Source: Curvularia clavata (lineage: Eukaryota). From it: a DNA stretch of 64,000 nucleotides. The stretch lies in assembly GCA_023920165.1 (NCBI GenBank), contig CP089275.1:434001-498000 (forward strand), read 5' to 3'. The notes beneath the pieces are model-generated. The model had not been told where the DNA came from, did not search any database, and was given only the letters and a program-made list of their open reading frames with translations. Position numbers and translations under genes: made by a program. Below, piece by piece: positions 8,748 to 57,904 of this stretch (its first letter is position 1; each line of letters starts with the position of its first letter).

Positions 8748-8935
8748 CTCTCCAGCGGGGAATTGAACCCCGGTCTCCCGCGAGCTGCCAATCGCTTGAC
8801 AAGCGGAAATACTGACCACTATGTAACTGTGCTGTCTGCCATCAAATCGGTCAAATTTTCTGTTTTGGGTTACGAAAACCTGCTAAATTTCCTACTCTGG
8901 GTCGCAGTAACGTGAGGTCGGGTTTCTGTGCTTAG
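8748..8935 (-). repeat. R1: conserved arm fused to a 5'-truncated tRNA-Asp(GTC) copy (attR-like)
   Basis: 8748-8822 matches the tRNA at 23545-23619 except for 3 intron changes. The tRNA 5' end TCTTCAGTAGT is replaced by ...ATGGCAGACAGCACAGTTAC. A T-rich terminator follows. Confidence 0.9.
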
Positions 8936-10033
8936 TTGTATTAGCCTAATTATCATAGTTGATGTTTCACTCCCTTGTATGTTGAGTGTCTTGGCGTGTT
9001 AGTGGCGCTTATCGCCTTAAAGCAGCATCGCAGCGTTTGATATTTAACGATGACTGGATTAGTGATGTATCAAGACCACTTTTCAAATCAATTGGCTTAA
9101 CTACTAATTCAACACGTTGTCATAGAATACACTGTGACCTCCCTCACTGCGTGGCGACAAGAACAATAGTGTAACATGGGGTTGGGCTATACTTCTTGTT
9201 ACAAATTGATCAGCTATCGGAGATGGGGACTTTGTTAGTAATACTAATGACTGATCAACCGTAGATTTCCCGATAGCGTCTATATAAGCAGATGAGACGG
9301 CGTAGATAATAATGAATGGGACACAATTTTCTTCACGTACCAAAGAGTGCGACACTTCTCCAGTCCTCGATCCAGGTTAAGGCGAGATAGCTGACAGCGA
9401 TAGGCCGTGAAATTGCCTGGCAACTCTGGTTGAAAGAGGTTATATGTAGTAGAGTATTAATCTTATTAAGTAAAGGACTTGTATGAAAGTAGAATCTGAG
9501 AGTTGACTACAACGAGTGTAATGATGAAATCTTTCTATCCTTTATATCCGTTGCTTCTAGTCCTACCCTCCCTCTTATCCTCAGGAAGCAATCTTCCGCG
9601 GGGGGTTTGGGAGGGCATGGCATTCTATATTTTTATGGCATCCCGTTCTTGGTGGGGGGTCAAATTACGTGATGGCTACGCTACGCTGATTCTTACATTC
9701 TGACGGGATCCCGAGTGGTTTCCTAACTACTCGTCTTTCGTCAGGGGAGGGAATGCCGTCTCCTGTTATTCATAACAAAGTAGTTAGTTGCTTCGACTTT
9801 GCAACAGCTTTACCCTTTCCCTACAGGATATTCGTGGTTAATGATCGTGCTGCAACAGTAATAAACACTTTCCTACACATTTCGTAGTCTGCATCAAAAT
9901 TACACTAAATGCGTTACTACGTTTCTTGGTTTCTGCTAAACGTGCATTGACTACGTAACGCAATATTGATTAGAACAACGTAGTGTTAGCTATATGCGTA
10001 CTGCAGAGCCGGTCCCCGATACATAGGGAGCCG

Positions 10034-10065
10034 CCAACGCCCCAACGCCCCAACGCCCCAACGCC
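10034..10065. repeat. (CCAACGCC)x4 tandem repeat
   Basis: Read directly from the sequence. Confidence 0.85.
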
Positions 10066-10155
10066 TCATGCACAATTGGTTGCACACAGATTCATTTCAT
10101 CTCCCGCCTTAGAATTTTCTAGTGAACTCAGCCATATATGACGCTATCCTCGCGC

Positions 10156-13100
10156 TCAGCTCCCAGGCTTTAGTTCCTTCTCGCGAGTCCAACCGCTTTC
10201 GACCTTGAGATCGTAGAAGTTCTTAAGCCGGTATTCGACATAGCCCGCAGGATTGCGTCTGCGGTCGTAGATAGTGAAGACACCTTTAGTCCGCATGCCG
10301 TTGACAAAGATTGGCTTTTGAACAACATCACCCTTGCTAAAGCGCGCGCTTGCCTAAGGCATTGTGAGACCGTATCGCATGTGTAATGGAGAGTTCTGGG
10401 CTTACCATTACTGAGCCAAGATCCATGCGCATGGCAGATTTGGTGTCTGGGACTATGTCGTTGATCTGCCCGTTGGCCTGGTACGCACTAGCAAGCTCGT
10501 GCTGCGATGCTAGCCGGTCAGGGTGAGTCTCTGCCAGCGTAGTCTTCCGCACCTTGACAACGTGCTCTAGCAGCTGTACCGCCTCCTTCGTCTGCCCGTT
10601 GGCCCGGTACGCACCAGCAAGCTCGTGCTGCAATGTTAGCCGATTTGGGTGAGTCTCTGCCAGCATAGTCTCGTATACTTTGACAACGTGCTCTAGCAGC
10701 TGTACCGCCTCCTTCGTCTGCCCGTTGGCCCGGTACGCACCAGCAAGCTCGTGCTGCAATGCTAGCCGACTTGGGTGAGTCTCTGCCAGCGCAGCCTCCC
10801 GCATCTTGACTACATGCTCCAGCAGCCCTATGGCCTGTCTCGTGTAGCCTAAGTATCCTAAGTTTCTGGCTGCTAGGTCCCATATCCGTACGTGCTCTTG
10901 CGACGGATCTAGAGGTGTGATCTGAAGAACCTTGTAAATGCCGTCCAGAAGCTCCTTGAGCCTGCCGTCTTCTCTCATCGTGTTCAGCACCCACCCACAC
11001 TTTAACAGAATAGGCAAGATCGTCCCAGGTGGGCCAAACGAAAGCATCTCCTGAACCCTAGCCGATAGAAAAGACTGCATATGCGGCCGCAATTGCCTCT
11101 CGTACATTTGCCACGTCTCCGACTCACCCTGAGACAATGCAATAATACACCCCGCACCAATCCAAGCCGTCTGCTGTTGCTCCTGCCCAAGCCGGTCTTT
11201 CGCCCACGCATGCGCTAGCGGATGCATCGAGAATCCATCTAGGTCGTCTGAGCGGTGTCTTGTCACCAGCGAGAGCGAAGCAAGCAGATCGCTGGCTCTG
11301 TTGAGCCGGTAGTTGTCCCACTCGTTAGCTTGACTGTCGATGAACTTAGGCAACTGATACACGTGCCACTGTCCAAGATCGTCGATCTCATTGTTCTGGT
11401 AGCTGTTGGCCTCAATTATATCTCGAGCTCCTCTCCACGCATCTAAAAAGACGTTAAATGGCAGCACACTAGAGTGCAGCATAGAGAGAACCCCAAGCAA
11501 GTCTAGCGCGTCTTGGCTAGCTTCGTCCTCAGAATCTTTCAGCACTGGGATAGATGCCTCAAACGTTGCGTAAACATGCCGATATCGTGACTGCTCCTGT
11601 TTAGGATAGTGATTTAGTAGCCGCTCTCGCAGTCGCTCGTACTTCTCCGTGTACTGGTCTAGCCGGCAGTACCCTTCTGCAATGTACGTACCAGCCTGGA
11701 TCAGCGCAAGCGTATGCGATCCTAGCAGCTGTACGATAGCCTGCGCCTGCTCTCCGCAAGCCTGCCACGAGGCTTGCGGTACCCTTGCGGCTTTGAGCAG
11801 AAGCTGCGTTGAGTGTTCGTCCTCCAGGCCCTCGAGCGTTTCGGCAGGCAGCGTGCTGTACTGGCTGCACTCAGGCACGCGAGACGTTATAATTACTACA
11901 CTTCGACGCCCAGACGGAATATACGCTGCGTAGTCAAAAGCTGGATTGTCAGCGCTGTCTAAGATTAGCAGCCAACGGTCAGGCGTGTTAGCGAGCGCCT
12001 GGAGCGATTCCTCAACGCTCTCGGCAGACGATCCGAGCGCCTTCGCGATAGCCAAGAAGCCATGCTGAGCTGTTGATAGGCTGCTAACATCGACCCAAAA
12101 CACACCCCAGAAACTGTAGACTATTAGTAGAGTTACTAATATATAACTCAGCGAAGCCATAACGCACTCTTCTTGAAGCAGGTCTGCAATCTTTAAGCAC
12201 ACCTCACTCTTTCCTATACCGGCCATACCCGTAATAACTAGCCGCTTGTGCTCTATTGCATCTTCGCTATCATTGCGCAAGGCGCTCCTAATCCGGTCTA
12301 GGAGTTCTAAGCGCCCGGTAAAGAGATGATTGACAAGACGAGGGACTATCCAATGCACATTTCTCACTGCATGTATATTAGTCTAAGTATATTCGAAGGC
12401 AGACACGTCCTATTCACCTCGCTGACTTTGTGTAGTATGTCTTATCGTATGTTCCTGCAAAGCTGAGTATTTCTCACCATATGGGTGTAATATTGTACTT
12501 ACGTGCATAATCAACGCAAAAGACAACTCTGTTTTGCCTGTGCGAAGTTAGTTCCACGCCCTTAGGCAACCTAGGCGGAGTCTTTAAGATACACACCCTG
12601 CTTTTGCTGTAGGTTCTCAATGCAGTCTCGCACCCGAAACCTCTGTGCCTGGTGTTGTAGATACTCGCTCGTCGCCGCTTCTATCCTGCCCTGCTCCTTA
12701 TACTCGGCGAGCCCGATCTCTTGCAGCCCCCGGTCGATGTTGAAGCGGAAGTATCGCTTCTCGTCATAGTGCTTCGCCCATCGCACGATAAACTTCCTCT
12801 CTGTCTCCTCTGTCTCTGTCGCGATCCCAACTAGGCTCTTTGACAGGAACTTAGCTATGTTGTCCTCTAGCGCCTTCTTGCTAGGGTAACCCGTGCCGAT
12901 CGAGATAAAGCACTTAACCAGTGGCTTTAGGTCGCCTGTGCCAGAACTCCAGATGTTGGCCGCCTCGCCTTCTACCTCGTTGACGGGGTTATTAGCACCC
13001 AGCGCGCCGTTGACGAAATGATGTGCCCCGATCGAGACAGGGTCGAAGAAGTCTGTCGCAGCCAACGTCGCAAGAGCTGCCTGGCAGACGGTCGCAGGGA

Positions 13101-16100
13101 TCTCGCCTTCGTCAGGCAGTGTGTAACTCCTCAGACGTGTGATGCTGGCTGTCTCTTTCACTGTCGCACAGACAAACCTTATGCTGTGTTAGCGGGAGGC
13201 TATGCACCTATGCAGTACACTTACGTGCGACACCCACGCTTCTTGCCGTCATTAAAAGCATCTGCTAAGGAAGTGTCTGTCTTAGAGATCACATTTTCGA
13301 CAGCGCTCTTCAGCTTCGCTGAGTCGAACCGCGCTTTCACTTTGCCGCTCCAACTAACAGGAAGCCAGCTAGACTTCTCCTCAAATACAGCCTTTATCAG
13401 TTCGCTATACGCTGCGATGCATGCATCCACGTCCATCTCTAGCCGGCCGAGCATAATAGCCATGAGCCTGTCACGTCAGTCTTGTCTGGTCATCATGCAG
13501 TCTTGTACCTACCCGCCTGTGCTCGTGCCACCAATAAGATCAAATACTTCACATGGCTTTACTCGAAGAAGACCGGCACTTATACGTTCGTTATTTAGTC
13601 GGGTCATCAGGTCTTTCAGGATGTACAGTGTTGATAGGCCGCGCACGCTGCCGCCATCAAGCGACAATAAGCACAGGCCATTCGTATCGAGCGGGTTGGG
13701 GTAAAGCACCCGCAGGCCCTGCAATTTTGGAACCTGGATGGTCTCAACAGGACCGAGAAGGGCAAAACAGCTGACATCTGAGGCCGTAAAGAGCAGAGTC
13801 CCGTTTAGTCCTTGTGGTAATAGTTTTTCGAAGCACAAATATAAAGCGGTCTGGTGTTGTAGGCCGTCCAGGATGATTAGCCAACGGCCCTTGAATGTCC
13901 AGGTGAGATAATGAACGAAAAGTTGAATTCTGTGCGAAATAGAGCCTGCCCACTCGGGGGGTTCGCCAAACTCTCTCATTATTGTATCATATGACCTTTC
14001 AATGTCATCTTCAGAACTTGCATTCACCCAGAATATGGAACAGGCAGAAGGGTGTTGTCGGATTCTGCTCACGAAAGTGCGGGCGATTGAAGTTTTTCCT
14101 ATTCCTTTTTGGCCGACAAGTGCTATTCTCAATTGTTGACTGGAAAACTGGACGGAGAGGAGAAGATCTTCGAGCTTATTCAATATGTCCTCTTGGCCAA
14201 TCAAGTATGATGGTGGAGATGGCACGGATATGTATTGAAGAGAATTGACTGTAGTGTGTTAGCCAAGTGGTTACTCATCTGTGAAAACTGACAAGATAGC
14301 TTTTGGTTGTTGGAGAGTCTTACTTTGGTTGAACAGGGATGGTTGTGCATTGACTGCAGCCACAGAATTCATCTGCACAACCACTTCTACCGCCACGTCC
14401 CGTATGTCCGGATGTCCCCACTCCATGTTGTTCTGAGATGTAAACTCAAGGGTGTGTAGAACTTCTGTGAGCCTACGAGACTCGGTTTGCCACAGCTCAG
14501 TTGCAGCGGCATCTGAATACAACGGCCGCTTCAATCCAGATGGTAAGGATATGCTCCCAGTAGTCACTAATAGATGCCGGGCATTGTTCATCGTGTCCTC
14601 AACTTCTTGGAACGTGACGAGGGGACACTCGCGGGCAATGGCTTTGTCGACACCAGTCATATGCGTATGTGACAATAATCCAGACCCCTCAGATATCTGG
14701 CTCTCTTGGTTGTCTGTTTCCTCTGAACCTTCGGGCAACGCTCTGAGAGCAAATTCATGTAAGTGTTGGAGTATGTGGTCGTCGATCTCCGTATCTACGG
14801 AGTCAGTGGTGAACTGGCACAGAGGACAGGCCAGGGGTCCGATCATTGGCCGTTTGTTCAATTCACCAAGCGTAGCCAATTGGCTAGACAATTTCATATC
14901 TCCATGCTTCGCTGCAATGTGCGATCTCCATTCCTCGGCAGTATCGAACTGTTGTGGACCCTCGTAGGTGGACTCATTGCGTTTGCTCGCATCGTAGGCA
15001 CAATAATCGCATGTCCAGCGTATCACAGAATGTCTCTCGAACATGTGTGCGAGCAGACTTTCGGCAGTGAGATACATTTCATCTGGCGTATCGCAGTCAT
15101 GAATTATGCAGGAATATGGGATTATATCTTGAACAACATGTGCTCTACACAACAAGCTAGTCAGCTGGGTGAATTTTGGTGGTAAAATGCGTTGCTATGG
15201 CACTTACTTCCAACTATCTTTGTGTTTGGACCCCGAATATTCTGATGGAAGAACGTCATTGCAGTATGGACATACCAACGATCCGTTTGATCTTACATCT
15301 GGGCAGCGAGGATAGGCCTGTGAAGACCCTATCCTTGTCATCTTGGTGGCTGTTGATGACACCCGTCTTGTCATTATATGCTGGACATCAAGTTTAGAGC
15401 CGACATCAGTGGCGGTGAGGGTAGTAGTGTGAGCCACTGACTGAGTGGGTTCCTTTTCCATTTGGGATTGGTGTGTAGTGGCAACACTGGGTGCAAACTG
15501 AGAAGGACCCGGGTAGGTACCGATGGCGGGTTTAACGGCGGCTTCAACAACTGCCAACCCGCCAGCATCAACAGCAGGTTCTGGCTTCACCACCAGCATT
15601 GCAGTCCTCGTTGATTTGGTGAAGAATTCGATCCGATTCATTCTAAGAATGTTGGCGCGAACCATGCGTCTTTGAATCGGAGTCAGCCTTTCATAGTCTG
15701 ATAATTTGTCCATTTTCTGAACAGCAGTGAGTTCCCTGGCCATTTTGTCTTCGAAGGCCATCAGGATAACAGTAGTAAGATGTTTGCGGAAATCTTCAAA
15801 TCTGTTCTCATCCAGTGTGGCATCTGCTTTCTCAAATCGGTATTTGTTCCCCGATTTCCGTATGGCAAGTGAAATTCTCTGCAATTGGCCCAAGATCGTT
15901 TTTGCGTACGAAATTTGCTCGGACAGAAATGGATCTGAAGTCTCGTTCCCAGAGGACGAAGCCGACGCTTTGGATTCATTTGACATGGCATCCCAGGATC
16001 CACAGCTCTGAGGGGATTCTGGATCCATATCTTCAGGATCTGGTTGGGGTTCCTCTTCAATGATCGCCAAGCCGCCATCAAGCCGCGATTTTTCTGGCCA

Positions 16101-16417
16101 TTTGTCAACCAAGCGAACATCGATGAAAGTTTGAACTTACCAGCAACCAAACTCCAGCATCTCTCCAAGGCCCCTATCAGAGCCCGAACTAGGCCGTAGA
16201 CGACATCTCGAACTTCTGTTTTCGTCCTCAGACGATAGTCTAACGACGACTTGTCGGTGCGTGTTACGTTGATGCCAGCACACCAAAGGTTGAAGTCGCC
16301 CTGGGCGGAGCGGATCCATACATGCTGCCCTAGTTCAGGATCGGCAACACACCTGGCGAAGACGTCTTTGCACTCCCTAGCGACACGATAAATCTCGAAA
16401 CTCTTAGAGTCGTCCAT
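10156..16417 (-). CDS. Chimeric NLR-like protein (~1,900 aa): N-terminal helical region, C2H2-like fingers, partial NB-ARC, patatin, NB-ARC, TPR and a small C-terminal beta-type domain
   Basis: Seven listed ORFs join in phase through canonical GT-AG introns. Exons: 16417-16141, 16093-15208, 15144-14324, 14248-13513, 13467-13225, 13177-12597, 12537-12503, 12454-12418, 12366-10406 (with an internal 54-nt intron) and 10353-10156. Motifs: CPYC..H, CPLC..H, GQKGIGKT, DGGSVRG, GTSTG, GMAGIGKS and HELAGAY repeats. Confidence 0.75.
10480..10860 (-). repeat. Near-identical 126-bp TPR-coding repeats (about 3 units)
   Basis: Repeated peptide LAETHPxRLxxQHELAxAYxANGQ with near-identical DNA. Confidence 0.85.
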
Positions 16418-16716
16418 CCAAAAATAGTAGATGTCGAGAGCAAGAAATGCTGGATCTGGTGGAGGACTGTCAGGTCCTAGGACAAAAATTGCGACGAAAA
16501 GCTGAGCGAAACTGAAAGCAAAATTTGGGTCTTCCCAAGAGATTAGGACTTGCGACAGTTGGTGCCTGAGAAATCAATTCTTTGCTGTCTCACGGCAAGA
16601 AGAGGTTGTTGCCTGACCTTTCCTAATTGGGACGCCAATTGAAGCTGCCCCGCCTTTGGCTCCAAAAGCAGTCCTTCAGCGCGCATGTACCGATCCCGAC
16701 TTCGAAACTCACAGAC

Positions 16717-19700: not shown

Positions 19701-19937
19701 TCTTATGCCGCAGCACTTCCATCGCTGATGAAAATCAATGGATTTGAAGAGGTTTTTGCGAAACTGTTCACGAAGAAAGGCATGGAGCATATGCTAGAGA
19801 GCATGTCATTAACCCGGAACGACAAAGAGTATTTCATCAGCCCGATATCGTACTGGGGAAATAAGAAGAAAGACATGGATCTCTTAATCTCGATATGCAG
19901 TGCAATTGAGCAGATGAACAAGCAGCCACCAGAGTGA
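16717..19937 (+). CDS. Subtilisin-like S8 protease with a long N-terminal region (HET-Q2-like gasdermin-associated protease)
   Basis: Catalytic motifs VAILDSG, FGHGT, ASAGN and AGTSIAT; kinase-C-lobe-like segment KILALGITLLEIELG. Intron 19232-19283 is in phase. The 5' exons are less certain (GC donor at 17038, acceptor near 17799). Confidence 0.85.
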
Positions 19938-19989
19938 CTGCCTCCTTAGTCGTTTTGGTATCTCATATTCAATTGCCTGGATGATGCAA

Positions 19990-20829
19990 TTATGCTTTCG
20001 GAAGGAGATAAATACAAGTTTCGTCTTCATTGATTCTGGCACTGTCGTACTCGACCTCTTCTTCCAGGTCCTCGTCGATCTCCTCCTTAGTAGCGTCCAC
20101 AACCACCAACGGGTCTTCCTTCTTTCCTCCTTCACCAGTCAAGAAGCCGCTTGCGTGCGAAAAGAGCTCCGTCTCCATCCCGGCGCGACGGGTTCGTATG
20201 ACATTAAGCTGATAAGCAAATACGATCCCTGGCGCCGTATCGTACGAATCTATTGCTGTCTTCCCACTCTCATGTTTCATCCTGCCCCCCACTTCGACCG
20301 GGATCGTTCCAGAAGGTGGACCAGACCCTTCGGCCTCGATGGAAAAATTCGATGAGTCTTCTTCCGTGACAGTGAACGATGACGTCGCGATGCGCAGCCC
20401 GGTCACTACATACACGGCACGCTTGCCAAACATGCCCGAATTAATTTGTTTTTGTACCGCTGGCAGGTTCGCGATCATGCTTGCTGTGTCGGGCGTCAGA
20501 GGATCCACGAAGGACTGGATCTCATGGTCGGTTTTGCTATAGTCTGTAATACGGCTCTTGCCAGCCTCCGTATTGGCTGACGCTGAGGCGAGCCCTTCAA
20601 ACTTGGCCCACAGCCCGACGCTATTGGAGCGCGACTTTGAGCGGTTGAAAGCCCGGTTGCGCTCCACGATAGTTTTAACCGCGGGTAACGTAACGGTACT
20701 GATGTTGCCGGAGCCCATTTCCGCGAGGACGGTTGTTGGCCGAGACCAGTGGGGGATCACCATGCCCAACCGAAGCGGACCTTCGGTTGTGAAGGTGAAA
20801 TCGGCAGGGAGAAACCAGGTTCCAGGCAT
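19990..20829 (-). CDS. Fungal gasdermin (RCD-1/HET-Q1-like), ~279 aa
   Basis: TWFLPADF..GPLRLGMVI N-terminus, VYVVTGLRIA, IVFAYQL, acidic C-terminal tail ending ETCIY. Lies convergent to an S8 protease, as in known het-Q-type pairs. Confidence 0.85.
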   Translation of the reverse strand: MPGTWFLPADFTFTTEGPLRLGMVIPHWSRPTTVLAEMGSGNISTVTLPAVKTIVERNRAFNRSKSRSNSVGLWAKFEGLASASANTEAGKSRITDYSKTDHEIQSFVDPLTPDTASMIANLPAVQKQINSGMFGKRAVYVVTGLRIATSSFTVTEEDSSNFSIEAEGSGPPSGTIPVEVGGRMKHESGKTAIDSYDTAPGIVFAYQLNVIRTRRAGMETELFSHASGFLTGEGGKKEDPLVVVDATKEEIDEDLEEEVEYDSARINEDETCIYLLPKA

Positions 20830-21119
20830 TGCGGACCTAGAATGTTGAAATTGGGATGATTCAGAAATGCTCCTGTTGTGACACTTGTGCTGGCGTACGC
20901 TGAGGTGGAGACGCTGAAACGAGCTCTTGGGATCAACCACTTAATATTAATCTTCAACTAGCCAATGATTAATTGACAAGTGGTACGCTGTTGCCTTAAG
21001 ATCGTATAAATAATGATTCCTGTCTAGCCTTGCGCCAAAATATTAGTCAGCACCGCTTACTGATAACTATCTTCTGATTTGTCTAGCCGTTATGAAACAC
21101 CGCCGCGCACAAACAGTTA

Positions 21120-22974
21120 ACGTAGTTTATAAGCGAGTCGGTCATACAAGCGAGTCGGTCACCCTACTAACTTTGCGCACCTTTACAAGCGTGTAGCTCC
21201 ACCACATATAGATAGTTTTAACAGATATTAAGATAGTAGATTAATTACTATCTAGAGTATCTTTCTTACATGTACGCGAGTTATAGCCAGTCTCTTTACA
21301 TCTACTACAGCGCGTAAGAGCCCGGCCGCTAATATCTAATCACTCTCCTCCCTAACGCTCTTCATAAGCAATCTGCTCATCAGCATCGCGTTAAGCGATA
21401 ATATCCTCGCCAGCTCTCTTTATAAGTACTCCTTACTTCTATATTCGCTTTCTTTTACGCTGTCTACGCTTTAATACTAGCTTATTAGCCTTCTAAAGAC
21501 TAGTGATCTAATCGCGTATTAGCTCAGCCGATAGTATTATTACTTACGCGCCTTTCTTAAGCTGATTAATTACTGCAATAATTAAAGCTGGCAAAGAGCT
21601 CTTATACTATCAAACGCGATTACTTATTAGCGTTAATTAAGCTTCAAGCTCGCGTACGTTGCTTAGCGTACAGGGCTGCTAGAGAGCTTCCGCAAGAGCA
21701 GCTAGAGAAGTAGGCGTACGTAGCTATACATTAAGCTTTAATAGAATAGTATCTAGCTAGAGAGAAATAAGACCTGCGCCTCAGAAAGCTGAGCAGATAT
21801 TGGCTAGCGTAAAGGATTAATTAAATGCTGCTTTAAACGCTGGTAGAAACTCGAGCTTAGTAATATGGTTGATATAGTTGCGTATCAGACTCTCTACCTC
21901 ACGGCTATACGCGCGCTTTAATAGAGAGAAGCAGCCAACGTCAAGAGGCTGGAGTAGGTAAGACGAGTGAGGCGGCATACAGAGCGTGTAGATATTGTTC
22001 TCCTTATAGAGCTCTTAGAACTTAAGTAACTGATAGCTCTTATGGCTATTAAGGATAAGTAGCCGGCGTACTCTAACAACCTTGCTATCTATATACTTAA
22101 TAAAGTACTTTAGCCACTCAACTCTAAGCTTATTAGTCGTCTAGCCGTTTTTGCTCACTACGATCGCCCAGTCGCGTGGGATTTCTACCTCCTCGTACTA
22201 GGTAGATAGGTGATACTTGCCAGTAAAGATCAGAAATAGTAGGATAGACCAGCCAGCTACGTTAATCGTAGCGATAAACGTCATCTACTCGCGACCACCT
22301 GGCTAGATAGCCTTTGGATGGCCTCTTCTCTCTAATACTATAACGACAAGCTGAGTAGTAATCTTGCCCATTAAAAAGCCAGCTTCGTTAAAGTTGTAGA
22401 CGTCCTCATCGCAGATACCATACTTAGCCTTCGTCTGCTCTACAAGCTTAAACCAGCTCTTAATTAAGACCAGATCTTTATATAGGGCTCTCTGCCTATT
22501 ATACGCTCGATTGAAACGCGTCGTAAGACTGTCTGTACGCTTAACAAAGTTGCGCGGCCAGTAAACGCCAACCTAGCTAGCGTCGCGCGCAGCCAGCAGC
22601 TTATCAGCCATATCTCGTATAGCAGCATAGGTAGGCGCAAATCTACATAGATCGAGATCGATTATATAGCTAGCAATCATTTACTTTTCTAGCTGCGATA
22701 GCTTCTTTAAATTAGACTAGCAATCGCGCCGCGCGTGCCTCCCAGCGCGTCGGTCGATTAGTATTGATTTCGGAATATTAAAGGCTATAGCAGCGCGTCG
22801 GGTACTCTAGATTTAATTACTATCTAGAGAAGAAAGGGCAAGCTGAATATCCCCTTCGTGAGAAGTTAATTTAGAAGCGTGGTGTGGAGACATTGCGCGT
22901 AAAGTTAAGGTGGGTGATCAAAGCTAGAGGGGTGACCGACTCGCTTGTATGACCGACTCGCTTATAAACTACGT
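21120..22974 (-). mobile_element. pogo/Fot1-family DNA transposon, heavily RIP-mutated
   Basis: TIRs ACGTAGTTTATAAGCGAGTCGGTCATACAAGCGAGTCGGTCACC; TA target duplication at 21118-19 and 22975-76. The transposase relic (21241-22893) is homologous to 24284-25936 and has many TpA-derived stops. Confidence 0.93.
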
Positions 22975-23544
22975 TATCGATTGCATAGGATAATTCAGAC
23001 TAAAATTGCAATGACTATAGTGATTTTTTGAAGTTAAACAGTACAACAGGGTAGGAGGCGGATAGTTTTTTCGATGTGGGAGCTAACCGTATTGCTGGGT
23101 GTGGCATTACACATACCCTGCATTGCTGTTAGATTGCGAACCCTGTCACGTGATAAAACATCACGTGACTGATAAATCGACCTGCCATCCCTTTGTAACA
23201 TATAAACAAATGCTACTATACAGTTAAATAGGTAGTAAGAGTATTATATTCTTGCTAAATTTCATAATCGTGCTGCGATTCCTACCTTGGTTCGGTGGGA
23301 CAGGACTTGGCAGAATTAAGGACGGGTGGAGTCATCGTACTTGCCAAAGGACATGAAGTTCAAATACTATCACCGGGTAAGGATGCGCGCTATAGATGTA
23401 GAAAAGTGTCCAGGCCATTCTTAGATATAATATGCTAGTACGCTTGCTGATGGGGTGCAAGCCGAGCGACTCGATCAAGCAACAGATTAACTGTTGTGTA
23501 GAAGCCTGTGTGTGGAAAGGTGCAAAAACAACAAAAAAGAAAAT

Positions 23545-23630
23545 CTCTCCAGCGGGGAATTGAACCCCGGTCTCCCGCGATCTGTCAATTGCTTGACAAG
23601 CGGAAATACTGACCACTATACTACTGAAGA
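23545..23630 (-). tRNA. tRNA-Asp(GTC) with a 14-nt intron (T1, intact)
   Basis: TCTTCAG/CTGGAGA acceptor stem, AGTGGTC D-loop, TCCGC-TT-GTC-A[intron 23593-23580]C-GCGGG anticodon arm, CGGGG-TTCAATT-CCCCG T-arm and an oligo-T terminator. Confidence 0.95.
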
Positions 23631-24185
23631 TTGTTGTAACTTTTACACTACTGTAATGTTCGATGGGAATTAGCAAATTAATTGACAATATAATCAATTG
23701 TTTTGCAACTTGATGATAGACATATCCCTTCCCCACCATCACCGTCCAATCAGGAAACTCGTTGCGAATTGCAGATCTTAGCCAAAGACATTCAAAACTG
23801 CATCAGTATTTATAATGCGTAATCGTCATGTAGGGTTCGTTGAGTGTTGAAGGCCGCGTGTCATCAACCGGCCGGCTGTGAACGCATCACTTTGTTTCTC
23901 GTGTGCTAGGATGAAGACCGTGCACCGCCAAGCTCCTCGCTTCCCGCCCGTTGCATGAATGAAGCGGCAGAGTCAGACCCTGAAGCGCGTGTTATAACGT
24001 AGCTTGGCATCGCAGTGATTGGCTATCGAAACTTGATAGTTGTATTCCAGAGAAGTGCACGCGATCTGTAAAACTCGCTTCAAGCTACAGCGTCTTATAG
24101 GAGTTCTGACAGCCACATTTTAGCCTTTTCTACCTGAGGCCAGACTACAGTAACTAAAAAGCAGGAATGTCAACGGATGTTAGTA

Positions 24186-26057
24186 ACGTGTTGGATAAGC
24201 GAGTGAGCCAGGCAAGCGAGTGAGCCAGGCAAGCGAGTGAGCCACCTCACCAACTTTCCACAACGCCTCAACTTCAATCAACTATGGCGTCCCCCCAACA
24301 AGCTTCTAAGGTCTCTTGTGAGGCTGATATGTATCTTGCGATTTCAGCTCTTAATACAAAGCAAATTGAAACCGAGAGATGCGCTGCTAAGACGTTCAAT
24401 ATCTCGCGAGCTACACTCCACCGCCGACGCGCTGGTTGCCCTGCCTGACACGATTGTCAGCCCAACTCAAAGAAGCTAACTAAGCTAGAAGAGGAGGTGA
24501 TAGTTGATTATATACTCAATCTCGATTCACGTGGATTTGCGCCCACGTACGCTGCTGTGCGCGATATGGCTGATAAGCTGCTGGCTGCGCGCGGCGCTGG
24601 CCAGGTTGGGCAGAAGTGGCCAGCCAACTTTGTCAAGCGTACAGACAGTCTTACAACGCGCTTTAATCGGGCGTACGATAGACAGAGAGCTCTATGTGAA
24701 GATCCAGTCTTAATCAAGAGCTGGTTTGAGCTTGTAGAGCAGACAAAGGCCAAGTACGGCATCTGCGACGAGGACGTCTACAACTTCGACGAAGCTGGCT
24801 TCTTAATGGGCAAGATTACTACTCAGCTTGTCGTTACAGCGTCAGAAAGAAGAGCTCGGCCAAAGGCTATCCAGCCAGGTGGTCGCGAGTGGGTGACATT
24901 TATCGCTGGGATTAACGCAGCCGGCTGGTCTATCCCGCCGTTTCTGATCTTTACTGGCAAGTATCACCTATCTGCCTGGTACGAGGAGGCAGAAATCCCA
25001 CGCGACTGGGCGATCGCAGTCAGCGATAACGGCTGGACGACCAACGAGCTAGGAGTTGAGTGGCTAAAGCACTTTGTCAAGCATACAGATGGCAAGGTTG
25101 TTGGGGCACGCCGGCTGCTTATTCTTGACGGCCATGAGAGCCACCAGTCACTTGAGTTCCAAGAGCTCTGCAAGGATAACAATATCTATACGCTCTGTAT
25201 GCCGCCTCACTCGTCTCACCTGCTCCAGCCTCTTGACGTTGGCTGCTTCTCGCCATTGAAGCGTGCGTATAGCCGTGAGGTGGAGAGCCTAATACGCAAC
25301 CACATCAACCACATCACCAAGCTCGAGTTTCTGCCAGCATTTAAGGCAGCCTTTAATCAATCGTTTACGTCAGCCAATATCTGCTCAGCTTTTCGAGGTG
25401 CAGGCCTTGTTCCTCTCCAGCCAGACACTGTTCTATCAAAGCTTGACGTGCAGCTACGTACGCCTACTCCTCCAGCTGCTCTCGCAGAAGCTCTCTGGCA
25501 GGCCTGTACGCCAGGCAACGTACGCGAGCTTGAAGCTCAATCAACGCTAATAAGTGATCGTGTTCGACGGCACAAAAGCTCATCACCAGCGTCGATTATT
25601 GCGGCGATTGGCCAGCTTAAGAAGGGGGCAGAGATAATGATGCTCTCAGCTGAGCTAATGCGCGAGCGGATCGCCAACCTTGAGAGAGCTAATGAGGCAG
25701 CGTCAAAGCGTAGAGAGCGTAAAAGAAAGCGGATACAGAAGCAAGGAGTGCTTACGAAGGGAGCTGGCGAGGATATTATCGCTCAACGCGAGGCTGATGA
25801 GCAAATTGCTCATGAAGAGCGTCAGGGAGGAGAGCGATCAGGTGTCAGCCGCCGGGCTCTTACGCGCTGTAGCAGGTGTAGAGAGACTGGCCATAATTCG
25901 CGTACGTGTAAAAACGATACTATAGATACTGCTTAATCTGCTATATTAATATATATCTATATTATTATACTATGGTGGAGCTACACGCTTGTATAGATGC
26001 GCGAAGTTGGTGAGGTGGCTCACTCGCTTGCCTGGCTCACTCGCTTATCCAACACGT
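24186..26057 (+). mobile_element. pogo/Fot1-family DNA transposon, near intact
   Basis: TIRs ACGTGTTGGATAAGCGAGTGAGCC (a 17-bp subunit occurs 3x on the left, 2x on the right); TA duplication at 24184-85 and 26058-59. Confidence 0.95.
24284..25936 (+). pseudogene. Fot1-type DDE transposase with one premature stop
   Basis: ATG 24284 is in frame with ORF 24497-25936; TGA at 24446-48 (probably CGA>TGA). Motifs YNFDEAG, LILDGH, LQPLDV and a C-terminal CxxC..H..C knuckle. Confidence 0.88.
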
Positions 26058-27841
26058 TAACCAAAAACCGAAAATTTAATTGCCACAATGGCAGACAGCA
26101 CAGTTACAAAGTGGTTAGTATTTTTACTTCTTAAGTAATTGACAAATCGCGGGAAACTGGGATTCAATTCCCCGCTGGAGAGCTGATTCTTTTGATACTT
26201 TTGTGCTTTTTCTATCAGTGGTGAAGTGAAGAGTAGTCGCTCACCTAGCTGATCTGAGTCTCTTAGATCATTGGTATATAGCTAACCGTCACTAAAATAC
26301 CTCTATACTAACCTATAGGGAGACATTAGTAGATATTATCAAGATAGGATTTTGTAGCTTCTGTGACGGCGTTTGGCTACAATCACCACCCATTACTTAG
26401 AGGTACAGTACATCTCAGTGAGCAAGACCCGAGCTGGACCCAATTTGGGCCCGAAATGAATCTAGGCTTGTTACCGGGTCTTTGGATACAAATTCTATCC
26501 AAGTGTGATGGAGCGCATGGTGTAATAGTACACGTTTTTATCCAAACTCTGAGACTGTTCACGGTGCGCTTCTGTGTAGATTGCCACAATACGCATATAT
26601 TCTACAGCTAATATCTCCAAAACACTCTTGATCATAGAGACTACCGTGGCATGGACTATAACCTCCGCCCATCAAATTCGCCAGATATGAGCATTATGGA
26701 GACTTTGGCATTGTTAATCCGCCGCAATTTAACTATATACATTGCACAACTTAGCGTCAAGGTGTTCGGCGCTTCTATGAAGTTTGGGAGAACCTAAATC
26801 GCAAGAAGATCAACGAGATAGTCAACAACTACCCAACACGACTCCATAAAATTGTAAGTAGTTATCCAGTAAGAGTTTCAAAATATTGATCCAGAATTTA
26901 AGACTGCTAGCTACGCACAAAGGCGAGGTTTTCGCTGTCGATTAGGGTTGTTTTGCATCGGCGGTGGTGGGGCCACACTATTTCCGTTTTAAGCGCATGT
27001 CCGAGAGCAGCTGTCGCACTAGCCAATCGTTGACAAGTAGGTAGAGGTTTTGTCCTTATGCCATCTAAAACGCTACAAAGTCCAGATAGTGCTTCCGCTT
27101 CACCAGGAGATAATATCAACAGAATCCCCTTAGTTATAATCATATTCAACTCCCAGCGTTGCGGCCGAGGGTATTCAGCCTTACCAACAAGTCAGATTGT
27201 CCAATCGGCTTGCAACGCATCTATCCCCCGGACTTGTCGGGCCTTTAGCTTCAGCTTACGGCTCACAAATACCATGGTCGGCAAGAGATACGGCAAGTTG
27301 TGAACCCCAAGAATCAGCCCCAGATGTCCCACAAAGCATAGCCTACTTACTCTTTGGCAAAAGTATTCAAAGTGGGGCGGTGACAAGGGGGGAGCTAAGT
27401 TGGATAAGGAAGCCAGTTTTGATTTATTACTATGAGCAGTAGCTCTCAGAGCGAATTATAGCTTTTGATTTCCGTGTACAGCGATTCTGTTCGACTCAAA
27501 GTCCGACCGAGCAGAAGCTGGATAGCGCCCCACTTTGAATACTCTTGCTAAAGAGCAAGTAGACCTCCACTTGCCCAGAGTGTGGAGAGGTGGGAATTTA
27601 AGTTTGGCGACCCCGCGATTCGTTCGGCGACTTGGCCCTGGTTTGATATGCCGGCGGAGACAATGCACTCTGCAACTGCCGGGAGCATATTGAACAACGC
27701 CCGTTAAAATTGCGTCCGTGCCAAGCGGGGGAATGTCAATAAGTACGCCGTGTTTCTGGCTAGGTTTGGGTGATGAAGACGCAATCGCTGATCCGAGAGT
27801 ATTAATAGTAGGGAATTTCATACATCAAAATTAATATCGCC

Positions 27842-33776: not shown

Positions 33777-33888
33777 GGCTTTCAAATTTTGAAACGGGAA
33801 CGTGCTAATTCATGAGGATTTAGAAGAGATCTGTGACTGCTATAAACTTGGAAGATGCCCCTTTTCATCAACCGATTGCGCTCGGACC

Positions 33889-39819: not shown

Positions 39820-40005
39820 CTCCCTAGCGGTAGAATGAGCGCCAGGCTCCCGGACCCATTAATCACTTGATAGGTACAAACAATAATACGATTTCATTGT
39901 GCTCTCTGCTACCATATCTATTGATGCTTATATTCAAGATTACGAATACCTATTTGTTTTCCTACTTTCTAGATAGTAATCTAAGGGGGGTTTTCAGTTC
40001 TCAAG
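39820..40005 (-). repeat. R3: decayed arm + 5'-truncated tRNA-Asp copy
   Basis: Collinear with R1 on the + strand: tgtgctctctgc, ttacgaatacct, tttcctact and agtaa match, with the same 25-nt spacer. Degenerate tRNA body plus terminator. Confidence 0.75.
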
Positions 40006-40706
40006 TACACTAGTTTAGAGGTAACTCGTGTTTCACCTATTATGTATTCGCAGCCTTAGTTAATTAGTGATACTTATCGGCTCCAAGCAGCACCATAGCG
40101 TTATAAGGGGCTGCGTTCAGTTTTCTCTTACCAGGAGACTGCATTGATAACAATCCACATGCCTAGAAGCCAACGAGCTCAAGTGATATGATCGATATCA
40201 TATAACTATGGTTACGTACAAGGCAAGCAAGAAGATGAGAGTCAAACCTCTTGCATGACGGCTCTCTTCTTTATGAGTCTTCCTTTTGCACCTCTTGAAC
40301 CTAGCTCTACTAGCCCTGCTAGTCGTACGGGAAGTTGAAGAGCAACACGATCTATTCAAATGACTGTATCACATAATCTAGTCAGCGATCTTCCTGGTAG
40401 TGACCATTGATGGAGCTGTCTGCACATGTGACCTATATACTCAATTTTCATTCAATATTTACCTCAGTATCTTAATCTTCCTACTCTTAGCTGGCCAATT
40501 TACAAGTGGATTGTGAAAGATTATTTGAATGCCTTGAATTCTGGAAGCAAATTCTATTGATGCGCTATAACTACAACTGATTGTCCGGCTATGTGGTAGA
40601 TGCACGTAGCTAGCTTCGTAGAGTGGATAGTGTTCATGCGCAAACTGCAGATGGCACCTTCAATGACTATACGAAAGCGATTAGGTACGTATTCAACTAC
40701 ATCTAC

Positions 40707-49977: not shown

Positions 49978-50063
49978 TCTGTAGTAGTATAGTGATCAGT
50001 GTTTCTACTTGTCAAGCAATCGACACATGGCGGGAGACCGGGGTCTAATTCCCCGCTGGGGAG
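49978..50063 (+). pseudogene. T2: full-length tRNA-Asp(GTC) pseudogene
   Basis: 86 nt collinear with T1, including the intron and native 5' end (TCTGTAGTAGTATAG). The D-loop GG>GA, broken anticodon stem and T-loop TTC>TCT suggest it is non-functional. Confidence 0.85.
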
Positions 50064-52497: not shown

Positions 52498-53161
52498 AAA
52501 TACGATACATGGTATTCACGGTCACTGCCGTTCGTGGTTTCGCCATACTCTGCTGATGATCTTGTTTAGCATACTCAACAAAGACCGGGTGTGAGAGAGG
52601 AGGAGCCAAAGGGAACTGCGGATAGGGGAGATTGTAGTTGTCTTTGGTGTCTAGTAGTGCGCACGTGCGCGTTCGCTGTACCTAGTACCAATTCTGTAAC
52701 TGACTGGTGTTACTGAAGCTGGACGCTACATGAGAGCTGTTTAGCATGCTTCGACGCCTCTAATTTTTTAGGATTTGGCATCGCTAAGCAGCGCGCGCTG
52801 CCGGGGTGTTTTCCAATGCCTCATCCAATCAAGGTAGGTCACAGCCTTGTGTCCAATGTTCTGGTGCATGCCTTCAGCCGTGCTTGCCCCACCCGAGGCG
52901 TGATACGAAACACCCTCACCACACTTGATTGTGCCAGCGAGCGCCCGCTTTGGCTCAGAACACGATCGCACTTTGCAATATCATACTGCAAGTCAATAAT
53001 GCGGTGAAATCCTCTCTTCTCTTTTCTTGTAGGTAACGCGTAGGGTGCGAAGGTCACGACACGCAGCCTCGCCCGCGCACGCTGGGTCTGCCAGGCTGCC
53101 GTAATAAGCCTCTTGTGTTTTGTACCTGCTACCTGCGCCGACTCTCCACCCATACAACGCA

Positions 53162-56100
53162 ATGCGTCTTCTCAAGTACGGAGATAACGACGAATTCTCT
53201 ATCGCCGAATTCGGTGAGGACACAAAGCCACCATATGCGATACTCTCCCACAGGTGGGGACCAGAAGCAGACGAGGTAACCTTCGAAGATGTAGTAGGAA
53301 ATAAGGGCAAGGATAAGCCTGGCTATGCGAAAATTCGCTTCTGCGGGGAACAAGCACAGCGAGATGGCCTGCAGTACTTCTGGATTGACACTTGTTGCAT
53401 TAACAAGGCAAACAAGGCAGAGTTGTCGTTAGCTATCCAGTTGATGTTCCGTTGGTACCGCAACTCAGTGCGATGCTACGCCTACCTATCAGACGTGTCT
53501 GTATCGCATTCTGGAGAGGACGGGGGGTCAAATGTGCCCGCGTGGGAACCAGACTTCCGCAAAAGTGAGTGGTTCGTTCGCGGATGGACGCTCCAAGAGC
53601 TTCTCGCACCTAGCTCAGTCGAGTTCTTCTCACAGCAATGGGAGAAGCTCGGCGACAAGAAATCATTACTACACCAAATTCACGAGATCACTGGCATCCC
53701 ACATTCAGCACTACAAGGAGCTCGGTTGTCTCAATTCAGCATCAACGAGCGGCTACGGTGGACCGAATACCGGTATACTACATATCCAGAAGACAAGGTG
53801 TACTCATTGTTAGGTATTGTTGATGTTGACTTGGCCCCATGCTACGGCGAAGGCCTAGCTGGAGCGTTCAGACGACTTCACGACGAGATCGATAAGACGA
53901 AACGATGCATCCAGGACTTACGCGACACAGATCCGCGCGACGATAAGAAGCGCATTGAGGATACAAAGGGTGGCTTGCTAAAAGATTCGTACCGCTGGGT
54001 CCTTCACAACGATAGTTTCCGACAGTGGCGCGAAGACCAGCAGAGACTGCTATGGATAAAGAGTGACCCTGGCAAGGGCAAGACGATGCTACTCTGTGGT
54101 ATCATCGATGAACTTCAAGATTCAATGCCCCAAGGTGCTGTGCTATCGTACTTTTTCTGTCAAGCGACGGACGCGCGCATTAATAGCGCAACAGCTGTAC
54201 TAAGAGGGTTGCTTTACATGGTCGTAAGCCAGCAACCCTCACTTGCATTGAATGTCCGCAAAAGATACGATCAAGCAGGCAAGAAAATGTTCGAGGATGC
54301 GAATGCATGGGTTGTTCTAGCGAAGATGTTCACGGACGTGCTGCGAGACCCGAGCTTGACTACTCATACTACGTATCTAATCATCGACGCGCTAGACGAG
54401 TGCATTACCAACTTGCCAGAGCTACTTGACTTTGTCGCAAAGCAGTCGTCTGCCCTCTCCCACGTGAAGTGGATAGTTTCTAGCCGCAACTGGCCAGAAA
54501 TAGAGGGACGCTTAGAGCAGATAGTAGGCCACAAGGTCAGACTAAGTCTCGAGCTAAATGCAGCGTCTGTGTCGACGGCAGTCCAAATCTTTATCGATCA
54601 AAGAGTCTCTGAGCTCGCGCACCAGAACAAGTACGACGACACGACCAAGCGCGCTGTGCTCGAACATCTAGCATCCAATGCAAACGACACCTTCCTATGG
54701 GTAGCGCTAGTGTGTCAGCACCTTCGAGCGACAGCAAGGCGAAACGTTCTGAGGAAGCTAGAGCTGTTTCCGCTTGGACTGAACGCCCTATACGAGCGGA
54801 TGATGCAGCAAATCAACAAAACGGACGATGCTGAGCTCTGCAAGCAGGTGCTAGCTACGGTTGCACTTGTATATCGGCCGATCACGCTCGAGGAGCTGGT
54901 AGCTCTTGTCGAACCGCTTGAAGATATAACCGACGACTCAGAACTACAAGAGATTATCGGTTATTGCGGCTCTTTCCTTACCCTACGAGGACGGACTATA
55001 TACTTTGTACATCAGTCAGCTAAGGACTTTCTCCTTACCAAAGCGGCTCAAGAAGTTTTCCCAGCCGGACAGGAGGCCTTCCACTACTCTATCTTTGCAA
55101 GATCGCTTCAGGTTATGTCCACAACCTTGCAACGGGATATTTATGGTCTTAAAGTGCTAGGCATATCGATCGATGATGTCAAGATACCTGAGCCAGACCC
55201 GCTAGTAGCAGTGCGTTACTCTTGTGTTCATTGGGTCGACCATCTGCGCGACTCAAACCCTACAGCTTCCGCAACCTACGCAGGATGTTTGCAAGATGGA
55301 GGCCTTGTTGAAAGATTCTTGAAAGAAAAGTTTCTGTATTGGCTAGAGTCTCTCAGTCTTTGCGAAAGCATGCCGAAAGGTGTAGTCTCGATGAATGAGG
55401 TACAGATGTTAGTGCAGGTGTGTATGCAACAAACTACCTGCGAGATAACCTTCTTACTGACAGTAGCTAGGCACAAGGCAAGTCAACTTCATCTACTGAG
55501 CTTGTGTACGATGCATATCGATTTGTCATGTACCATAAGCAAGTAATCGAGATTCAACCTCTTCAGGTTTATGGATCTGGGCTATTGTTTAGTCCAACGC
55601 AGAGTCTAGTGAGAAAGCTATTCCGGCAAGAAAAGCCAGAAGGTATCACTATCAAACCAGGCATCAGGGACGGATGGAGTGCATGCCTGCAGACGCTTGA
55701 GGGCCATATGGGTATTGTTTGTTCAGTAGCCTTCTCGCACGACTCGACGCTGCTGGCTTCAGGATCTAGAGACGACACTGTCAAGATATGGGATGTAAGA
55801 AGTGGCACGTGTCTGCAGACCCTTGAGTACGGTAATATGGTTGATTTATTGGCATTCTCGCACGATTCACGGCGGCTGGCATCATCTGACAGGCGGGATG
55901 TCAAGATATGGGATGTAAGCAATGGCATGTGTCTGCAGACGCTAGAGCTAAACGACGGTTATCTCGCATCGGCGGCATTCTCGCACGACGCAACGCGACT
56001 GGCATCGTTTCACAAGGGGACTGTCAAAGTATTAGACACGAGCAACGGAGCGTGTCTACAGACCTTTGAGAACAATTATGGTGATGCTGGATTGGTGGCC

Positions 56101-57534
56101 TTCTCGCACGATTCGGCGTGGTTGGCGTTGGCGTCAGCGACCAACCACGGAGCTATTCATATATGGGATATAAGGAATGCTGTATGCCTACAGAAACTCA
56201 GAGTGCCTACCGACAGTGTCACTTCTATAGTCTTCTCACGCGACTCAGCGCGACTAGCGTCGGTATCGAGGGAAAGAACTATTAGAATCTGGGATACAGG
56301 TAGTGGTGTATGTCTGCAGACGTTCGAGGGCTATACCAACGGTATTGCCTCTATAGTCTTCTCAAACGACTCAGGGCGACTATTTTCAGGGTATTGGGAC
56401 GGAACTATCAAGATTTGGGATGTGCGTAATGGCGATTGTCTACAGGCGCTCGAGAGCCATAGCACTTGGATCACCTCCGTGGTCTTGTCGCCTGACTCGA
56501 CACAGCTCGTGTCAGGATCTGGGGATAAGACTATCAAAATATGGGACACCAACAGCAGCACGTGTCTACAGACATCTCAGGACCATAGCTATTCAGTCAT
56601 ATTAGTGGTCCTCTCGCATGTCTCTACGCGACTAGCGTCAGCGTCTTACGATGAAACTATCAAGATATGGGATACGAGGAGCGGCGAATGTCTGCAGACG
56701 CTTAAGGGCCATAGCGATACAGTCTCCTCAGTTGACTTCTCACACGACTATACTTGGCTAGCGTCAGCGTCTAACGATAAAACTATCAAGATATGGGATA
56801 CAAGGAGCGGCGAATGTCTGCAGACGCTCAAGGGCCACCAAAATGGTGTTGAGTCAGTAGCCTTTTTGCATGACTCAAAGCGGCTAGCGTCAGCGTCTAA
56901 CGATAAAACTATCAAGATATGGGATACAAGGAGCGGCGAATGTCTGCAGACGCTCGAGGGTCATAGCGATACAGTCTCCTCAGTTGACTTCTCACATGAC
57001 TCAACGTGGCTAGTATCGACATCTAAAGATCGTACCATCAAGATATGGGATATGGATGATGGTGCATGTTTGCAAACGCTTCAGGGTCATAGATATTCTG
57101 TTGTCTCCGCGGCCTTCTCGCACGACTCAACACGACTGGCGTCGTCGTCATGGGATGGCACTGTGAAGATATGGAATGCAAGCAGCGGCGCATGCCTGCT
57201 AACGCTCGACGTTGGAAGACGTCTGTATTGTTTGTCATTTGATGCTACTGGCGAATACTTGATTACAGATATTGGATCTATTGATGTAAGTACATCCATG
57301 GGATCTGCCACAGTGAATGCCACAGAGCTTCAACATCCCCGTTATGTTGGCGTGGGCATAAGCATTGATGGCACATGGATTACTTATGACGGCAAGGAAC
57401 TGATCTGGATACCACCTGAGTATCGACCCACATGCTCGTTTGTGCACGGAGACACAATTGGCATAGGTACTACATTAGGAAGAACATGGGTTTGTAGTAT
57501 TGACGTTCAAACGGTTTCCCAGCTATATGTATGA
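53162..57534 (+). CDS. HET-NACHT-WD40 NLR (HNWD, het-e/het-d-like)
   Basis: HET motifs YAILSHRW, WIDTCCI and RGWTLQE; NACHT SDPGKGKT and IIDALDE; about 12 WD40 repeats; intron near 55418-55470. Confidence 0.92.
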
Positions 57535-57755
57535 GCAAATACAAATACAGAGCTTCTTTCTCTATCTCATGCTCCATTTTCTTGACCCCTATCTCATAGA
57601 AATGAATGTGGATGCCTGAGTACATACATACGTGGTTTTGCCGCATCGAAGTGTCACAAAAGTTCAAGAAGCCAGACGATCGCGATTCTATTACACCATC
57701 ATTGTAGTCACTCATCAGCTGCCAATAGCATTGATAGCGTCTTTTTCATAATCTG

Positions 57756-57904
57756 GACCCGAAAAATTAACGCATTTTTGTAACCTAGAGTGGAAGCCTT
57801 AACAGTTGTTATGGCAGATGGCGCGGTGACATACTAGTCAACATCTCGGATTGTAAAGCAATTGTTAGCTCGGGGGAGACAGGAGTTCAACCTTGACTGT
57901 AGAG
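57756..57904 (+). repeat. R4: decayed arm + 5'-truncated tRNA-Asp copy
   Basis: GTAACC-N25-ATGGCAGATGGCGCGGTGACAT is followed by TAGTCAACAT..TTGTAAAGCAATTGTTAGCTCGGGGGAGACAGGAGTTCAA..AGAG and a T-tract. Confidence 0.75.

Follow-up and report, generated by a model that had tools for sequence, protein, structure and literature searches.

A family of arm–tRNA-Asp junction repeats in Curvularia clavata and its possible origin by tRNA-targeted insertion

The closest described parallels to the repeats reported here are found among the Dada transposons and the fungal Starships. Dada elements form a DDE superfamily that targets multicopy small RNA genes, with relatives reported in fungi (PMC3706591, PMC8869645). 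The target is mimicked by their sub-terminal repeats, and their insertion sites are fixed within tRNA genes, for some of them inside the A box (PMC3706591); in Perkinsus, some families insert in the A box (TAGCTC), and short, internally deleted derivatives retain the ends only (PMC3706591, PMC8869645). Starships are elements of the Pezizomycotina, with NLR and patatin-type genes as typical companions (PMC9156397, PMC11162782), and the insertion site of the Voyager Starships lies 20 bp from the 5′ start of the 5S rDNA (PMC9156397). Here we analyse a stretch of 64,000 nucleotides (nt) from contig CP089275.1 of Curvularia clavata (the window, in whose positions all coordinates are given). It holds a family of tRNA-Asp-derived copies, two of which have a native-type 5′ end (T1 and T2), while in the other four (R1 to R4) a non-tRNA sequence, which we call the arm, is joined to the 3′ part of the tRNA.

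As in Dada insertions, all four arms adjoin tRNA-Asp at one fixed position. In contrast to Dada elements, which in the available descriptions are flanked by both tRNA fragments and by 6–7-bp duplications, this locus shows no 5′ fragment of the tRNA beyond T1, T2 and chance matches, and no duplication. No Dada-type transposase was recognised in the window, where the only DDE gene is of the pogo type (DDE_1), but Pfam may not include a model of the Dada type. With the 5S-targeting Starships, as far as the same sources describe them, the locus shares a multicopy conserved RNA polymerase III (Pol III) gene as target, insertion near its 5′ end, and companions of the NLR and patatin type. It differs from Starships, again as portrayed in those sources, in having a tRNA as target and in the lack of a DUF3435 captain, direct repeats or inverted ends in the window. 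Membership of either group fails on the features tested: neither a captain nor a transposase of these groups was recognised in the window, and a second tRNA fragment and duplications were not found.

In bacterial tRNA islands recombination usually takes place within the 3′ part of the tRNA, and the integrase gene stands beside the att site. In these islands, and in integrative and conjugative elements, an intact tRNA and a direct repeat of its 3′ part bracket accessory genes, a geometry that T1 to R1 and T2 to R4 would fit; our locus departs from them in that the break is at nt ~5–12, no integrase is present in the window, and two of the four R copies do not follow this geometry. Tested against tRNA-derived short interspersed elements (SINEs), the likeness is that of a short dispersed unit containing tRNA-like sequence; unlike them, the unit has its tRNA module at the 3′ side, keeps the intron, has no intact A box, and lacks a tail and target duplications.

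Six tRNA-Asp copies and a common arm

A profile of the tRNA part plus trailer (nhmmer) recovers exactly six tRNA-Asp-derived copies in the window, with E-values from 1e-32 to 4e-19, the best match after these having an E-value of only 8.3. A model made from T1 alone still recovers R1 and R2, as well as T2 (E 1e-14), R4 (E 3e-8) and R3 (E 2e-4). An earlier note on this DNA had described six copies of one tRNA-Asp gene; the number stands, but T1 alone is a valid tRNA, and T2 is a pseudogene. T1 (23545..23630, − strand) is an intact tRNA-Asp(GUC) gene with a 14-nt intron, and with a Rfam tRNA score of 48.8 bits over model positions 1–71 it is the sole tRNA of the window above the gathering score of 29. 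It is also the only one reported by ARAGORN, where the label Leu(caa) results from a run without an intron model; once the 14-nt intron is removed, the anticodon loop (..TTGTCA..) gives GUC (Asp). T2 (49978..50063, + strand) is full-length and has a native-type 5′ end, with 63/73 identities to T1 from nt 14 to the end, a mismatched acceptor stem and no Rfam match at E ≤ 10.

The tRNA part of R1 (8748..8822, − strand) runs from nt ~12 to the 3′ end with the intron retained, and reaches 22.2 bits in Rfam (model positions 5–66), under the gathering score. That of R2 (26108..26182, + strand) has a T1-type intron, and those of R3 (39820..39892, − strand) and R4 (57831..57904, + strand) are heavily decayed, being identical to T1 at 45/71 (63%) and 44/73 (60%) positions, respectively, with R4 still aligned to T1 by BLAST (E 3e-7). 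As the earlier note held, the alignments show that the intron-equivalent stretch and the T-runs are retained in all six copies; with intron and trailer preserved, copying took place at the DNA level.

In all four R copies the alignments show a non-tRNA arm of 65–215 nt, joined to tRNA-Asp at one common position. The arm of R1 (8823..9038, − strand) has about 215 nt in common with R3, and 65–75 nt with R2 and R4; over all pairs, the common length is 65–90 nt in most and ~215 nt for R1 versus R3. The arm of R2 lies on the + strand in two pieces, a distal one (24107..24185; nhmmer E 5e-15) to the left of a transposon, and a proximal one (26060..26107; nhmmer E 5e-5) that matches the junction 29-mer with 2 mismatches. 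The span previously assigned to R2 (24130–26182) includes a 1872-bp pogo/Fot1-like transposon situated in the arm. The arm of R3 (39893..40103, − strand) is identical to that of R1 at 132/201 positions, and that of R4 (57704..57830, + strand) was likewise found with nhmmer.

That these four sequences share an arm, as had been claimed earlier, was confirmed with a profile of the arm only, built without the 12 nt that adjoin the tRNA part. In the 64 kb it matches just the four arms (E 9e-26 to 5e-15, and 5e-5 for the second piece of R2), the next match having an E-value of 0.53. The match is not an artefact of profile building, because models from which some copies were left out recover the other arms: the R1+R2 model finds R4 (4e-4) and R3 (7e-3), and the R3+R4 model finds R1 (2e-6).

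The junction itself had been placed at about nt 12, in the D-stem. It does fall at the same place in R1–R4, but its position is ambiguous, either at tRNA position 11/12 or at 4/5 with three changed bases, because the covariance model aligns the CAGT at the end of the arm to tRNA positions 5–8. A spacer within the arm, formerly described as exact, is so in length (25 nt in 4/4 R copies), but not in sequence, since the pairwise identity is only 10–15/25. Conservation of the arm is instead concentrated in the two blocks that enclose the spacer, TTCGTAACC and ATGGCAGACAGCACAGTTAC: invariant columns amount to 7/9 in the TTCGTAACC block and 12/22 in the terminal 22 nt, versus 6/25 in the spacer (19/31 vs 6/25, p 0.007). 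Such block-wise conservation fits a functional terminus in the source lineage. Overall, the repeat family is real, and less tidy than first described.

Two other identities of the arm were considered and rejected. A native 5′ flank with a small deletion was suggested by the flank of T2, which is alike by eye only; the arm profile misses both flanks, and none of the eight local alignments of the arm with the 5′ flanks of T1 and T2 is significant against shuffles (p 0.13–0.94). A second tRNA or another known RNA inside the arm was dismissed with no credible Rfam match at E ≤ 10. In contigs of the source organism there is extra cover at ≥85% likeness over 8869–9750, reaching past the 215-nt arm, and one contig skips 9533–9699, so that the R1 arm may represent one end of a more extended repeat (at least 0.9 kb) with copies elsewhere in the genome.

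Sequence from outside the window was also compared. Two public runs of the same organism contain 0.98–0.99 of the words of 2000–11900, and the other 21 among those listed contain 0.14–0.31. Contigs of four runs (X2, X4, X7 and X8) were aligned to 4200–24180 at ≥85% likeness. In X7, a relative, a 6770-nt contig covers 4200–7766 and 7876–8774 and ends 27 nt into the tRNA part of R1, and a 28,351-nt contig starts ~26 nt into the 5′ part of T1, aligns from 23614, and covers the upstream flank of T1 to 24180. Past 24180 the latter contig contains 71 nt of tRNA sequence in reverse orientation, as R2 has. If this stretch is the counterpart of R2, the head-to-head arrangement of T1 and R2 extends to at least one relative, and the family is older than their split. 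Arm position 8845 is covered by two contigs in each of X4 and X7, which end ~30 nt away; arm-like sequence beside the junction thus occurs in two relatives. The X7 contigs break inside the tRNA on both sides (at 8774 and about 23605) and none joins the two, such breaks at a repeated tRNA being expected whatever the structure. The stretch 14205–20874 has no cover in X4 and X7 and almost none in X8; no contig spans it, so this is not evidence of its absence.

Flanks, age and origin of the junctions

The R units are short (~240–340 nt) and, as shown by self-BLAST and in keeping with the earlier note, they are not embedded in longer segmental duplications. No homology was found past ~215 nt upstream or ~50–65 nt downstream of the R copies. 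On the downstream side a T-rich 3′ trailer is shared among copies over 28–50 nt, the supported pairs being R2–R3 (~40 nt, p<0.0025), R3–R4 (~50 nt, p 0.005), T1–R4 (~26 nt, p 0.003) and R3–T2 (p 0.04); the similarity of the remaining trailer pairs is not significant. The 5′ flank of T1 is not related to that of T2 (p 0.42–0.91). Homology among the six copies is therefore one-sided, with a common 3′ module (tRNA nt ~12 to the end, plus trailer) and three unrelated 5′ sides, namely the T1 flank, the T2 flank and the arm.

Regarding their order, T1 and R1 form a direct pair on the − strand at a distance of 14.7 kb, and T2 and R4 a direct pair on the + strand at 7.7 kb, with the T copy upstream in both. 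Neither R2 nor R3 is matched by a suitably oriented T copy, and R2 lies ~500 bp from T1, inverted relative to it. The alternating orientation of the R copies (−, +, −, +) is probably due to chance. A mirror-image segmental duplication, (R1,T1,R2)/(R4,T2,R3), was rejected, as both the trailer pairings and the arm pairings disagree with it.

The copies differ in their apparent age. The tRNA part of R1 is identical to T1 at 70/73 positions, and all three changes are intronic. From nt 14 the exon is identical at 59/59 positions, whereas 3/14 intron positions differ and seven more differences fall in the 22-nt trailer; over the 97-nt BLAST alignment this amounts to 0/59 differences in the exon against 10/37 in intron plus trailer (Fisher 3e-5). 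Because this is the pattern of purifying selection, it suggests that the 3′ part of R1 was in a working gene until recently, or was converted from a gene with the same intron. As judged from the exon pattern, the junction of R1 would be young, and those of R3 and R4 old. The tRNA part of R2 differs from T1 at 11 positions, 10 of them with C>T or G>A changes, which fits RIP-like mutation (as in repeat-induced point mutation) after the arrival of the transposon. Between R1 and R2, transversions are found at 12/78 positions of the arm and 2/72 of the tRNA part (p 0.01). Taken together, these signals fit junctions of different dates, formed from two conserved sources, namely tRNA-Asp genes in working order and the functional terminus of an element. 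They are less well explained by neutral decay after one rearrangement, a simple form of which is disfavoured because of the exon/intron contrast in R1, the blocks of the arm and the one-sided homology.

We therefore favour, at a probability of roughly 45%, the reading that R1–R4 are right-end junction scars, of different ages, left by a mobile element family that is not encoded in the window and that inserts at a fixed tRNA-Asp site. The arm would be the conserved terminus by which this element is joined to tRNA-Asp(GUC) genes, always at one place of the A box/D-arm (tRNA nt ~5–12), and target-specific insertion would have formed the junction more than once. The older scars, R3 and R4, would then have decayed, while R2 would have been struck later by the pogo transposon and subsequently by C>T/G>A mutation. 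The enzyme would act in trans, from elsewhere in the genome.

A number of results weigh against this reading. We ran a Pfam scan of 139 stop-to-stop frames of ≥70 aa (28 + 111), with the 15 unexplained frames repeated at E ≤ 1, and among the 139 there was no tyrosine recombinase, Phage_integrase, DUF3435, other recombinase or reverse transcriptase, the pogo transposase being the sole mobility gene; the recombinase that the earlier note had suggested looking for near the arms is thus not found in the window frames. A left junction is missing as well, as none of the four R copies has a fragment of tRNA nt 1–11 within 1.5 kb upstream. Over the whole window, matches to nt 1–11 occur at the level of chance (15 found vs 19 expected), T1 being the sole exact one, and a search with nt 1–15 gives T1, T2 and one match with three mismatches. 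Comparison of the arms with the DNA downstream of T1 and T2 shows neither inverted nor direct similarity (12 tests, p 0.10–0.94), so that terminal inverted repeats were not found. Nor was a shared left end, since T1 and T2 are not followed by similar DNA (p 0.087). No convincing target duplication was found around the copies. Metagenome contigs scanned with the junction 19-mer gave five matches, all by chance, and none was followed by tRNA sequence. The contrast in transversions between arm and tRNA part is significant in 1/6 pairs, the other five showing no difference. Furthermore, the shared trailers require the targets to be local paralogues, and ectopic gene conversion from a functional tRNA-Asp gene could equally have refreshed the tRNA part of R1.

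Several other structures were tried and discarded. A 14–17-nt direct repeat proposed as a target duplication of R1 (nominal p 0.02 among 6 tests) has its upstream copy within the stretch shared by R1 and R3. A split or permuted tRNA, or a D-arm intron, was rejected given that no nt 1–11 fragment lies ≤1.5 kb upstream of any R copy. A solo long terminal repeat, a Helitron end, a foldback element and Polinton-like long inverted ends were rejected on the lack of TG..CA ends, duplications and matching gene content.

A serious rival, which we consider less probable, is a single origin, in which one tRNA-Asp gene lost its 5′ end by an illegitimate rearrangement, and segmental duplication or ectopic recombination then multiplied the resulting unit of ~300 nt locally, at the DNA level. 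The tRNA parts of the younger-looking copies (R1 and R2) would have been refreshed by ectopic conversion from functional tRNA-Asp genes, with no site-specific enzyme involved. An identical junction is the simplest result of descent from one event, and this origin agrees with a trailer that is common to all copies, as is the tRNA part, and with the missing mobility gene, target duplication and left junction in the window. The six copies are confined to 50 kb of an NLR/HET-rich region, a kind prone to duplication, and the inverted T1 only 500 bp from R2 could explain the T1-type intron of R2, which is what conversion should produce. In fission yeast, dispersed tRNA genes are known to undergo ectopic conversion with one another. 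What this origin does not readily accommodate is R1, whose exons are perfect and whose intron differs at 3/14 positions: conversion from T1 would have brought the intron along with the exons, so that an unseen donor is needed. The block-wise conservation of the arm is likewise unexpected under neutral decay, and no flanking homology extends beyond the limits given above to show segmental copying.

Still less probable, in our estimate, is the cassette array that the earlier note inferred from att-like repeats. According to this model, an integrative cargo element, the fungal equivalent of a bacterial tRNA island, with an attP consisting of the arm, tRNA nt 12 to the end and the trailer recombines in the D-arm of tRNA-Asp, restoring the gene (T1, T2) by means of the 3′ copy that it carries and leaving the arm plus the old 3′ part (R1–R4) as attR, so that repeated rounds and rearrangement produce a 50-kb NLR/HET array of immunity-type genes. 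The T1–R1 and T2–R4 pairs do stand in direct attL/attR order with the T copy upstream, T1 is the only exact match to tRNA nt 1–11 upstream of R1 on its strand, and the identical exons but different introns and trailers of T1 and R1 are as if one 3′ part were element-borne and the other that of the host. One-sided homology and shared trailers also fit growth of an array by repeated integration at a restored gene, and the X7 contig ends at the R1 and T1 sides are compatible with an empty site. That compatibility is offset by the fact that contigs are expected to break at a repeated tRNA anyway, and X7 shows no joined empty site. R2 and R3 are misfits, without a partner and in the wrong orientation; no integrase or DUF3435 is found among the window frames; T1 and T2 are followed by unrelated DNA, and inverted ends are lacking; and with a trailer common to six copies, the supposed host side of the junction is not unique. 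Nor does the searched literature, in the parts available, contain a tRNA-targeting Starship. We regard as very improbable a SINE-like or other retroposed short element with a tRNA-Asp-derived module, despite the shortness of the unit, arms that seem to be cut at the 5′ side to varied lengths (215 nt vs 65–90 nt), and unit ends close to the Pol III T-runs. The retained intron excludes mature tRNA as the source, the tRNA part is 3′ of the arm with a disrupted A box, neither an A-rich tail on the units nor target duplications were found, and the 59/59 exon identity of R1 exceeds promoter constraint.

Transposons and genes around the copies

The transposon in the R2 arm (24186..26057, + strand) is a pogo/Fot1-like DDE element of 1872 bp, inserted at TA with TA duplication. 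It has perfect inverted ends of 44 nt, within which 17-nt tandem repeats are found, and an intact frame of 495 aa with the Pfam domains DDE_1 (1e-35) and HTH_Tnp_Tc5. A second pogo/Fot1-like copy (21120..22974, − strand), degenerate, 82% identical and TA-flanked, lies between T1 and the rest of the T1–R1 interval. Very many contigs in all four of the aligned runs (X2, X4, X7 and X8) match this family, which is therefore abundant in this fungal group.

The intervals between the copies contain NLR and HET genes, for which a role as cargo is a conjecture. A patatin-NB-ARC-TPR NLR (10337-14258, − strand) carries three TPR-coding repeats of 126 bp, 87–88% identical, at 10465–10826, and contigs of the source organism show a variant repeat number in this gene (a joint that 'goes back 115'). 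Directly downstream of it, at 10040–10075 on the − strand, is a short GGGGCGTT microsatellite of ~4 units. A HET-NACHT-WD40 NLR (53108-57534) contains about twelve WD40 repeats of 126 bp (42 aa) at 55680–57210, 63–74% alike in DNA, an architecture typical of fungal NLRs. The other genes identified by Pfam in the window encode DHDPS, an aldehyde dehydrogenase, a SLAC1-type channel, DUF7580, a subtilase, an MFS TRI12-type pump, a P450, a homogentisate dioxygenase and a Zn2Cys6 factor, together with two HET genes and a sacsin-like gene. The GC content is 41–57% throughout the window, with no large AT-rich blocks.

Downstream of T1, beyond the second pogo copy, an open reading frame (19990..20940, − strand) encodes a conserved hypothetical protein of 279 aa. 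It was considered as a recombinase near T1 and rejected, as it has no Pfam domain. Among named organisms, the nearest relatives come from Alternaria (83%), Phaeosphaeriaceae (79%) and Bipolaris (75%), which points to an ascomycete host of Pleosporales type. The protein is 70–91% identical to proteins scattered over Dothideomycetes, Leotiomycetes, Eurotiomycetes and Sordariomycetes. Given this patchy yet well conserved spread, it could be a mobile cargo gene.

What the junctions would mean

Insertion at a fixed position of tRNA genes is known in animals and protists from Dada, and targeting of the 5S rDNA is known for fungal Starships. The literature that was searched, as far as its text was available, describes neither a fungal element with a tRNA gene as its target nor one that, in the manner of bacterial islands, restores the target gene. 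If the junctions derive from one old rearrangement copied locally, R1–R4 are an ordinary pseudogene family. If they were left behind by insertions, the arm offers a ready-made probe for the element, the blocks TTCGTAACC and ATGGCAGACAGCACAGTTAC being best suited, and such a probe would also show whether the NLR/HET clusters of this fungal group assemble or move by tRNA-targeted integration.

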